Under the pieces are notes generated by a model. That model was given only the letters and a program-made list of their open reading frames with translations. It had not been told where the DNA came from and made no database searches. Positions 54,881-56,963 of a DNA stretch of 64,000 bases are shown piece after piece; positions within the stretch are counted from its first letter, which is position 1, and each line of letters opens with the position of its first letter. The stretch lies in assembly GCF_963506605.1 (NCBI RefSeq), contig NC_083280.1, positions 63,054,001-63,118,000 of the forward strand. Direction: 5' to 3'. The DNA comes from Zootoca vivipara (Eukaryota). The translations under genes and the position numbers were made by a program.

Positions 54881-56963
54881 TTTTTTTTTGAACATACTTT
54901 TTATTAATTTTACAAAATACAAAAAAGCAAAAAAAAGGTACATACTTAAACCCCTTTTCCACCTCCTTCCTACCCACCCACATGGGTCCTCCCCTGCCAC
55001 AGAAGTATCCCATGTATGTGAACAGTCAGAGATGGTCCATTTTATGCTTGGGTTTCTGTCCTCCCCCCCCTCCCCTGACCCCAAAGCCCCCCCCTGCCAC
55101 CAGGGAGCTCCAGCAAACCAGGGCAGTACGCAGGAGGACATCCATCCAACCATCTATTGTCATACCAAAAAAAAAAAAAAAGAAAAATAGAAATAGGAAA
55201 AAAGGGGGGAAAAAAAGAAAGGGCGAAAAAAGAAAAAAGAAAAAACAATACAAAACAAAAAAATTTTCTTGCATTCATAGTTGTAAAACCATATTTTGTG
55301 GGCTTCCCCTCCCCCCCCTTCCCCGGTTTTCATCCCTTTTTTATCATCTGCAACAGTTTCTTACTTTATAAAAATACACCTTTGCATCTTATACAACTTA
55401 TAAATCAATTGTTAACATTTTCATCTAATATTCAAATCACTGAGAAATCAAACTCCCATTTTCTCTTCCCGTGCCTAATTTTTTGTTTTTTCTCCCTCTA
55501 TAAGCCTCCATATTTTCACATTTTCCAAAATCCATTCACTTTTAAAACTATAACTATTCTCAATTTAACCTTACATCCCCGATTGCCGGCTTCCCCTCCC
55601 AATCCAGCAAATTCCAAAATCAGCAGACCAGTTATAAACCTGTTAATCCATCCTTAATCACAACATCACTTTCCCTTCACCCCACCCCCTGTTTACAGTC
55701 TTTTGTCATCCAGGCCACCATACAGGACCCCTGAATTTCTTCTCTTCTCTGCATATTTTTTCCTTCTTCCCTGTGGGCGTTCTGGAGTTCCAATGATACC
55801 AATCGTGCCCCCCTCAAAAGCAGGGCACTCCATCCAACTTTTTGTAGAGTAGAGTCATCATTTTTTTCGTGGTGTGCTTCATTTTGTGTTGAATCATCAC
55901 AATCCTCATCTTCTTCTTTTCCTTCCCCATCATTGTCATTCTCACATTCATCTTTTTCAGTGTCAAAAGCTTCATCTCCTAAAAAATCATATTCCGCCAT
56001 CACCTCCTGGAATTTTTCCTGTAACTCTTGCCGTCGTGTCTCCTCTTGACATAACTCTATTCTTGTTTCCCACATTAAGGTCAAAACAGACCGCTGGAAC
56101 TCAGGGGAACACTTTTTTGTTGACATATTTCAGTCCTGCCAAGGTCAAAACTTGTCACGTGGGGTGGAATATGATCACAGTTTATTTTTCGACTCCATTT
56201 TAACAAGCTGGCTGCATTCTTCAAGTCTTATTGACAATAAAGTTCGAACTCACATTTCACAAACACTTAAGCCAAAAAAGAAATTCCACAAAGTCCAGAG
56301 ATACAAAGTGAAGTAAAATTTGACTTATAAATCCTGACAACTCACTGGGTTGTCTGGGCTGCCGGCTCCCGAGTGGAAAGGTTTTTTCTTAGGCTGTACC
56401 TCTTTATTGCAGGGCAGTCATAAACCGCAGTCTCTCTCCCCTTTTCACCCTGCATCAAAGGGGAGATTCTCTTTGATGCCTTTGAGGGATCCTTTGAATT
56501 GTAAATCTTCTGTTTATGGCTTCGGGTTTCTATTTACTGTCTCTTTTGTTGCCGTGGGGGGGGGTGGCTTCCTCTTTTCTCCCCTCTCTCCCAGATCCAA
56601 ATTGTTTTATAATAATCCAAATCATGAGGTTACTTACAGTCTTTTCCAATCGTTTTATTTTTGGAAGAATCCAGCGCTCTCCGCCTTCGGCTTGAAGCTT
56701 CTCCCTGCTAGAATAACGTTGCCGCTCAAAATGGCCCCCGCGACTTCTACCCTCCTCGCTCCGGAGCTCTTATTAGAGCTAGCCGAAGAGTTGGGGAGTC
56801 CGGATTGGGTCTGTGCCGAGCAAATTGCCCTCGGGACGCCCTTCCCGAGGTTCTAAGGGGCGCAGCGTCGCTCTCGCTGCCCTCCCCACTCCTAGCAGAG
56901 ACGGGCCGTCTCGGAGACGAGACGAAGCCCCGCCGATCGACGCTGGCGCTGAACCCGGAAGCC
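54881..56963 (-). mobile_element. Complete 2083-bp non-autonomous L1-type retroposon (no ORF2)
   Basis: 17-bp TSD TATTTTGGCAATTTTAT at 54864-54880 and 56964-56980. CpG-rich head starting GGCTTCCGGGTTCAGCGCC; AATAAA-AAGTATGTTC-poly(A) 3' end. Confidence 0.9.
55677..56126 (-). CDS. 149-aa ORF of the 2.08-kb retroposon (predicted N-terminal helix/coiled coil plus acidic tract)
   Basis: Uninterrupted ORF with ATG in GAAAT-ATG context (A at -3), 9 nt downstream of a TTTTGACCTTGGCAG acceptor. Translation is not demonstrated. Confidence 0.5.
   Translation of the reverse strand: MSTKKCSPEFQRSVLTLMWETRIELCQEETRRQELQEKFQEVMAEYDFLGDEAFDTEKDECENDNDGEGKEEDEDCDDSTQNEAHHEKNDDSTLQKVGWSALLLRGARLVSLELQNAHREEGKNMQRREEIQGSCMVAWMTKDCKQGVG

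Follow-up and report, generated by a model that had tools for sequence, protein, structure and literature searches.

A conserved 5' splice-site motif in the 5'UTR of a non-autonomous lizard retroposon and its possible role in U1 docking

Introduction

Why does a retroposon, which is copied from RNA, carry in its 5' untranslated region (5'UTR) a segment with the look of an intact intron? The question is raised by an element on the minus strand of the window, i.e. the 64,000-nt stretch of Zootoca vivipara DNA analysed in this study. In the initial annotation, a donor and an acceptor were taken to bound an intron that ends 9 nt before the start codon of an open reading frame (ORF), the spliced RNA serving as mRNA and the unspliced RNA as the template for retrotransposition. 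Below, loci and families carry L numbers and RNA data sets carry X numbers.

Results

Anatomy of the element and its L1 ancestry

The element consists of the following features.

54881..56963, minus strand: non-autonomous retroposon with a full length of 2,083 nt; all 40 copies scored are 98-100% alike
56964..56980, minus strand: 5' copy of the 17-nt target-site duplication (TSD)
54864..54880, minus strand: 3' copy of the 17-nt TSD
56638..56963, minus strand: 326-nt CpG-rich leader with an L1-type 5' end (L1 5'UTR homology), predicted to fold as a single closed domain
56136..56637, minus strand: 502-nt segment initially annotated as an intron; AT-richer inner 5'UTR with six ATGs, tolerant of indels
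55677..56126, minus strand: 149-aa orphan ORF, predicted to have an N-terminal helix, an acidic disordered middle, and a C-terminal helix
54890..55676, minus strand: 3'UTR with a T-rich tract (~55263-55168), G-rich blocks, and AATAAA at 54905

The 5'UTR of the window element is 837 nt long. The 17-nt TSD, together with AATAAA and poly(A), bears out the annotated origin of this genomic copy from RNA. TSDs are present in 28 of the first 30 copies, which are ~99% alike, and they measure 9-21 nt, with a mode of 17, in the 70 copies for which one was found (a set with imperfect de-duplication). AATAAA with poly(A), 5'-truncated copies, and the lack of a reverse transcriptase, by which L1-mobilised retroposons are recognised, were all found, and ORF2 is absent; as judged from these sequence features, the element is probably mobilised by the L1 machinery.

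Autonomous L1s were surveyed in ~740 kb of stretches taken blind and in four aimed extensions, which gave three full-length 5' ends (L265 once, L277 twice). A profile of eight non-autonomous leaders, without those of L216 and L217, matches the leader of an L277 L1 with an E value of 2.8e-9; therefore, the leader and the donor are inherited from L1. The L217 leader is 66% identical to the autonomous L277 L1 leader over 310 nt, and the 3'UTR of the window element has no match in the L265 L1. Fragments of L1 ORF2, ~45% alike to L210, lie elsewhere in the window (17869-18280, minus strand).

In the 1.44 Gb genome, 445 copies carry the exact leader motif, a lower bound for leader-bearing copies, and 316 carry the exact unspliced donor 20-mer. 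Subfamilies grade stepwise down to ~70% identity, and beyond them lie the deeper sister families L195, L208, L216, L203c, and L250, plus the leader-swapped L217. In the latter (L217:404-2450, plus strand) the body is 91% like the window copy and the leader and donor (GTGAGT) are different, leader and donor having been exchanged as one module.

Several arrangements of the copies were also noted. Same-family copies are nested in or abut each other (L109:1-4600 and L112/L161), and some known copies have deep relatives no more than 2 kb away (L005, L169, L203), which suggests local clustering. A 5'-truncated relative of the L250 family (L209:430-1815, plus strand) has a different short acidic ORF and is duplicated (L154, L155). 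Another non-autonomous family is represented by an element of 1.24 kb that lies reversed inside the ORF2 of the L265 L1 (L265:4490-5733, minus strand); it has a TSD, an A-rich tail, and a 5' end like that of L1. A contig in X4 joins the 3' part of the element (window 55272-55550) to L061 DNA, where the assembly has an empty site, suggesting a polymorphic 5'-truncated insertion; an RNA loose end first taken for an L1 partner was mapped to an empty site, and the partner was rejected.

Conservation of the donor

The donor was found exactly where it had been annotated, with ACT before it and its first base at 56637.

56630..56637, minus strand: conserved 5' splice-site motif GTAAGTAA, element position +327

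At window composition GTAAGT is expected 0.39 times per 2,083 nt, so that the single occurrence observed is ordinary; its conservation is not. The donor census covered 150 distinct copies with the ORF start (151 rows, since L161 and L211 are the same copy), of which 19 had been picked by the donor motif and the others by the whole element, the ORF, or the leader. GTRAGT is present in 142 of the 143 distinct copies that retain the end of exon 1, the sole exception being a 5'-truncated copy that has lost two bases. Across these 142 copies, positions +1, +2, +4, +5, and +6 never vary and +1 to +8 are nearly fixed; -2 and +9 are variable, and the only change within the motif is A>G at +3. The bases 5' of the GT vary freely and may be ACT, ACC, AAA, CAA, CCC, or TCT.

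The motif stays in place far beyond the close family: it does so where identity has dropped to 60-75%, and also in L1 leaders that BLAST matches to the window leader barely or not at all. GTRAGT lies at +330 in L208, +325 in L217, +329 in L203c, and +322 in L250, while L216 has lost the donor at ~+325 and has GTAAGG at +299. It also lies at +318 to +330 in all three full-length autonomous L1 5' ends, where its chance is ~0.01 each for an 18-nt window chosen after the positions had been seen. Conservation of the GT across copies, which had been proposed as a check, is thus borne out in the family, its sisters, and autonomous L1s, and the pattern of substitutions points to selection on the donor of the kind expected for a 5' splice site. 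The same survey shows that the donor is not special to this element: it is common to autonomous L1s, the full-length copies of which are unspliced too.

Two other readings of the motif were not adopted. A guard against a conserved AATAAA nearby is not supported: the stretch from donor to ATG shows no conservation of poly(A) signals, with 0-1 in 20 of 20 lineage copies and 2-3 in L195 and L208, and among 30 copies only that of the window has the AATAAA at 56659. A U12 intron was dismissed because the donor mismatches the U12 consensus.

The leader and the inner segment

The leader was annotated as free of ATG and the segment as holding at least six; the counts are zero and exactly six. The leader is 60% GC with 31 CpG, and its lack of ATG has P=0.28 in dinucleotide shuffles (0.011 in mononucleotide shuffles), and the six ATGs of the segment are below the shuffle mean of 8.2. 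The contrast that had been drawn between the two is therefore within chance. Of 124 full-length copies, 110 have a leader that lacks ATG. The same new ATG, 16 nt upstream of the donor, occurs in the leaders of ten copies, of which nine are 98-99% alike to the window copy; one young branch tolerates an ATG in its leader. Selection for an ATG-free leader was considered and rejected, since ACG>ATG changes, seen in 12 copies over 4 sites, are no less frequent than CpG decay of other kinds, seen in 55 over 28 sites. The predicted fold of the leader reaches -146 kcal/mol (z -2.78, better than 100 of 100 shuffles), and in an uncontrolled count 11 of its 96 pairs have changes on each side.

The segment evolves more loosely than the leader, with 23% against 56% invariant columns over nine lineages. 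Four other 8-nt windows of it equal the donor in conservation (5 of 495 windows), so the segment appears to hold other cis-elements. A pseudoknot is also predicted in it.

56408..56466, minus strand: predicted H-type pseudoknot, stem 1 56466-56457/56444-56435, stem 2 56454-56448/56414-56408

Its cells are paired in 95% of cases over 23 copies, compared with 49-65% for slid partners. In the close families only one pair is changed on both sides, which 38-48 of 500 shuffles match. The pairing of stem 2 is supported by L216 (TGCAGGC/GCCTGCA) and L250 (TGCAGAG/CTCTGCA), since both strands are changed in each. The L093/L103 lineage spread although it has lost both outer arms by deletion, and by eye the pseudoknot was not seen in the three autonomous L1 5'UTRs. 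Rfam gave 14 matches at E<=5 over six loci, none at the gathering score and no ribozyme or IRES among them, and a further Rfam search gave a 7SK copy only. An HDV-like or other known ribozyme was rejected, as there was no Rfam match and, by eye, no room for P3 between the arms.

Acceptor candidates before the start codon

The annotated acceptor, GGCAG ending at 56136 and 9 nt from the ATG at 56126, is in place. The block before the ATG contains the following features.

56136..56138, minus strand: CAG initially annotated as the acceptor
56140..56147, minus strand: invariant TGACCTTG block, also before ORF1 in two autonomous L1s
56151..56153, minus strand: candidate for an alternative acceptor, an AAG that follows a C-rich tract and lies 24 nt from the ATG

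The acceptor at 56136 has 55% pyrimidines at -5 to -24, compared with 0.60-0.65 for the best AGs of the same segment. Its AG is kept in 135 of 150 rows, one copy being counted twice. The 15 rows without it are the L121/L128 clade (10 copies, with CAAG at the acceptor and the T run broken), four single mutants, two of which came from a pattern favouring such mutants, and L208, which has no AG at this position. The annotated acceptor is thus weak in its tract and not invariant, being altered in a whole subfamily. The AAG at -24 is an equally good candidate, since it is kept in 149 of 150 rows behind a C-rich tract.

A YAG 5-9 nt before the ATG occurs in the window clade, L195, L216 (TAG at -6), L203c, and the L1 L277a. 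A strong 3' site is found in L203c only, which has a textbook CTAAT branch point, a tract, and TAG 5 nt before the ATG. In the L277 L1 matched by the leader profile, TGACCTTG is present and a CAG lies 8 nt from the ORF1 ATG, on its 5' side; therefore, the whole frame of the initial annotation has an L1 counterpart. The L265 L1 has no acceptor near ORF1 and a strong tract 200 nt upstream.

Stronger-looking tracts were observed elsewhere. The T-rich tract of the 3'UTR (window 55154-55263, minus strand) ends in ACAATAG and looks a better acceptor than 56136; no joint to it is listed in the RNA, where reads are cut in that repeat. In the autonomous L265 L1, a 240-nt pyrimidine tract leads to CAAG, with TACAG just before the ORF2 ATG (L265:4050-4350, plus strand), and splicing from the donor at +330 to this tract could give an mRNA for ORF2 alone. 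Neither of the L277 L1s has a spacer of this kind before ORF2.

Tests for splicing in the genome and in RNA

The segment is retained in every copy inspected, and the distance from donor to ATG is 437-1,162 nt in all 142 copies. The search for intronless copies that had been proposed gave none: there are 316 exact unspliced motifs and, in the young family, no spliced copy in the genome with exact patterns allowing a gap of 0-30 nt and covering both acceptors. At the human rate of 1.8% for spliced integrated copies (SpIREs), the probability of 0 of 316 is 0.003. These patterns, being exact, do not reach the upstream AAG acceptor where a subfamily has TAAGACT or CAAGATT at the end of exon 1. Degenerate spliced patterns gave 2, 10, and 9 matches, all of them chance or unspliced, the pattern with 9 being the leader without the T before the donor. 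That unspliced RNA is the template therefore agrees with all copies inspected; the other half of the proposal, a spliced mRNA, was not confirmed.

The junction reads that had been predicted were found in none of four runs of unspecified tissue, a test of low power. No junction at either site was present in X14 (268 reads), X15 (121 reads), or the contig sets X1 and X4, which are presumed to be RNA. About 6% of the two raw runs X14 and X15 was read, with at least three reads per joint and a 92% cut-off that drops older families. The probability of missing a junction is 0.13-0.46 at 30% splicing and 0.004-0.09 at 50%. Reads 99% alike to the window copy number 9 of 268 and 2 of 121, and reads enter from flanking DNA. 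X1 listed joints down to a depth of 7.85, none at the sites of the element. Sense depth in X14 is 2-9 over the segment, 3-7 over the leader, and 5-22 over the ORF, and one X4 contig crosses the donor unspliced. RNA loose ends, one at 56583 and one at 56606, agree with the 5' end of the L217 family in its unspliced form; a pattern taken from an RNA loose end had no match, its source family being L217.

Uneven depths were seen in the same data. A leader contig in X4 has a depth of 207-1271 (window 56660-56875), compared with ~35 in the segment. Antisense depth in X14 is 24-37 over the 3'UTR (window 55004-55147), and X15 has an antisense pile at window 55643-55792.

The orphan ORF

The ORF is open in all of the 150 best-scored copies, with a length of 132-177 aa across the family. 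Its dN/dS is 0.29-0.60 in each of 13 non-independent pairs, and this ratio argues for purifying selection. The predicted model, of low confidence (pLDDT 58.8), has a helix at 8-53; the acidic stretch after it is disordered, and a further helix is itself predicted with low confidence. For 19 of 19 members no Pfam match above the cut-off was obtained, a full HMMER profile search gave no match among 1.84 billion proteins, a word-indexed search of proteins of 81-261 aa found no homologue, and neither did the ESM Atlas or Foldseek with the low-confidence model as query. Against ORF1 of the L265 L1 the best BLASTP E value is 0.094, with which a remnant of the coiled coil alone remains compatible. 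In the unspliced RNA, 5-10 ATGs precede the ORF in 124 of 124 full-length copies.

Discussion

The explanation to which we would give even odds is that the donor is a mostly unspliced U1-docking site, inherited from L1, that enables the full transcript and is not the start of a routine intron. Pol II would start at the first base of the element, and U1 snRNP would bind at +327 and relieve shut-off by Restrictor or by premature polyadenylation. With weak acceptors productive splicing would be rare; the full-length RNA would be copied by L1 ORF2p in trans, and the ORF would be translated from the unspliced RNA or from a downstream start. PMC12211998 reports that a strong 5' splice site early in a transcript blocks Restrictor independently of splicing, and PMC6789731 reports, from mammalian data, that L1 proteins preferentially mobilise their own mRNA. 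An intronless Pol II retroposon would need such a block, and docking would fit the fixed donor, the loose acceptors, the lack of spliced copies, and the L1s with upstream ATGs. The autonomous L1s L265 and L277a have 5 and 4 such ATGs and are unspliced, from which it may be argued that the unspliced RNA can be translated. Against U1 docking, a selected ORF behind so many ATGs and so stable a leader would be hard to reach by scanning, and translation of the ORF is left unexplained. The YAGs just before the ATG in several lineages, with the textbook 3' site of L203c, also count against it, as do the internal poly(A) signals, which are not conserved, and the weakness of the RNA junction test.

The switch of the initial annotation, in which germ cells or early embryos would splice the segment to make the mRNA and the unspliced RNA with its pseudoknot would be the L1 template, is possible but doubtful. 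The splice-site pattern of donor conservation, the loose evolution of the segment, the YAGs in deep lineages, the site in L203c, and the selected ORF behind upstream ATGs agree with it. So do stem 2, covarying in L216 and L250 and not seen in the three L1 5'UTRs, and the excess of leader depth in X4, and the lack of spliced genomic copies is its own prediction. However, no junction was found in the four runs, X1 included, the L121/L128 clade and L208 have the acceptor either lost or at another position, L093/L103 spread without the outer pseudoknot arms, the covariation in close families is matched by shuffles, and ten young copies carry a leader ATG. It also requires that a polyadenylated mRNA sharing the 3' end of the template be kept almost entirely out of retrotransposition; human L1 gives 1.8% spliced copies against 0 of 316 here. 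Its extension to an L1-derived superfamily, perhaps reptile L1 itself, with a retrovirus-like two-RNA programme, in which a spliced germ-line mRNA would give the orphan protein and pseudoknot-marked unspliced RNA would be copied by L1 ORF2p, is held just as tentatively. It is improbable that the motif is kept at the DNA level in a transcription-factor site of an internal promoter, its likeness to a donor being incidental. The four equally conserved windows of the segment would suit such a site, as would TGACCTTG beside the acceptor, which we take to resemble a nuclear-receptor (NR5A/ESRR) site; however, the bases 5' of the GT vary, the change within the motif is one that a donor permits, and L216, having lost its site, has GTAAGG at +299. 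There is a precedent in human L1, where a donor is kept inside a RUNX3 site (PMC5860796). Least of all do we favour chance motifs in a young family, conserved only through recency. The expected 0.39 GTAAGT per element length and the near identity of the first 30 copies would agree with this, but it is contradicted by the motif keeping its position at 60-75% identity and in L1 leaders that hardly align.

Overall, the separate components are already known: little-used conserved donors in L1 5'UTRs, half-elements that bear an ORF, and retroelements that retain introns. In retroviruses, labour is divided between spliced and unspliced RNA, and the packaging structure lies downstream of the donor. 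The window element has no LTRs, primer site, or envelope and shows L1-type insertion. It resembles HAL1 in its length of ~2 kb, L1-type 5'UTR, one selected ORF, poly(A), TSDs of 9-21 nt, and lack of ORF2; however, HAL1 encodes ORF1p (PMC5753468), to which the window ORF has no match. The element therefore works like a HAL1-type parasite and falls outside HAL1 as defined by ORF1p with its coiled coil, RRM, and CTD. Human L1, as described in PMC5860796, likewise has a conserved 5'UTR donor, mostly unspliced RNA, and propagating unspliced copies, but its donor is at +98 in the RUNX3 site and ~1.8% of full-length copies are spliced, whereas here the donor keeps to ~+325 even among families that are very distant from each other, and the search for spliced copies found none. 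Lizard clade-1 L1s have 5'UTRs of 792-1,465 nt that start with GACTTCCGG (Boissinot and Sookdeo 2016, PMC5381506) and, unlike the window element, are autonomous; the leader of the window element shares homology with an L1 leader of this type. In the main text of that paper 'splic' and 'intron' do not occur. Penelope-like elements also keep splice signals in their copies, but they belong to another class with other enzymes, their introns were shown to be spliced, and retention was ascribed to an antisense or unspliced template (PMC3846280). The available text of a Chlamydomonas preprint makes no mention of introns in L1. Neither a donor at ~+325 across reptile L1s nor the orphan-ORF family was found in the open literature searched.

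These observations touch on how L1-type intronless RNAs escape Pol II shut-down and how ATG-rich L1 5'UTRs are translated. A donor at constant distance across autonomous and non-autonomous families offers a single site that can be mutated and rescued with U1. If true, the two leading explanations would mean either that a U1 licence is borrowed without splicing or that a non-LTR element divides mRNA from template by splicing. The family is still polymorphic and carries an orphan protein apparently under selection.

The hundreds of scattered modules of promoter plus donor could become first exons of host genes. In a duplicated region, fragments of leader plus donor (L193:4858-5416, minus strand; L194:256-815, plus strand) are followed, ~1.1 kb downstream and in like orientation, by a strong TTCCTAG acceptor with a zinc-finger exon, as observed in L193, and could serve as a host first exon; a CpG-rich host region lies 4-5 kb upstream of them. 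The 7SK RNA copy found with Rfam (RF00100, E 7e-55; L261:2730-3046, plus strand) lies within an intron of a gene that presumably encodes a vomeronasal-type receptor.
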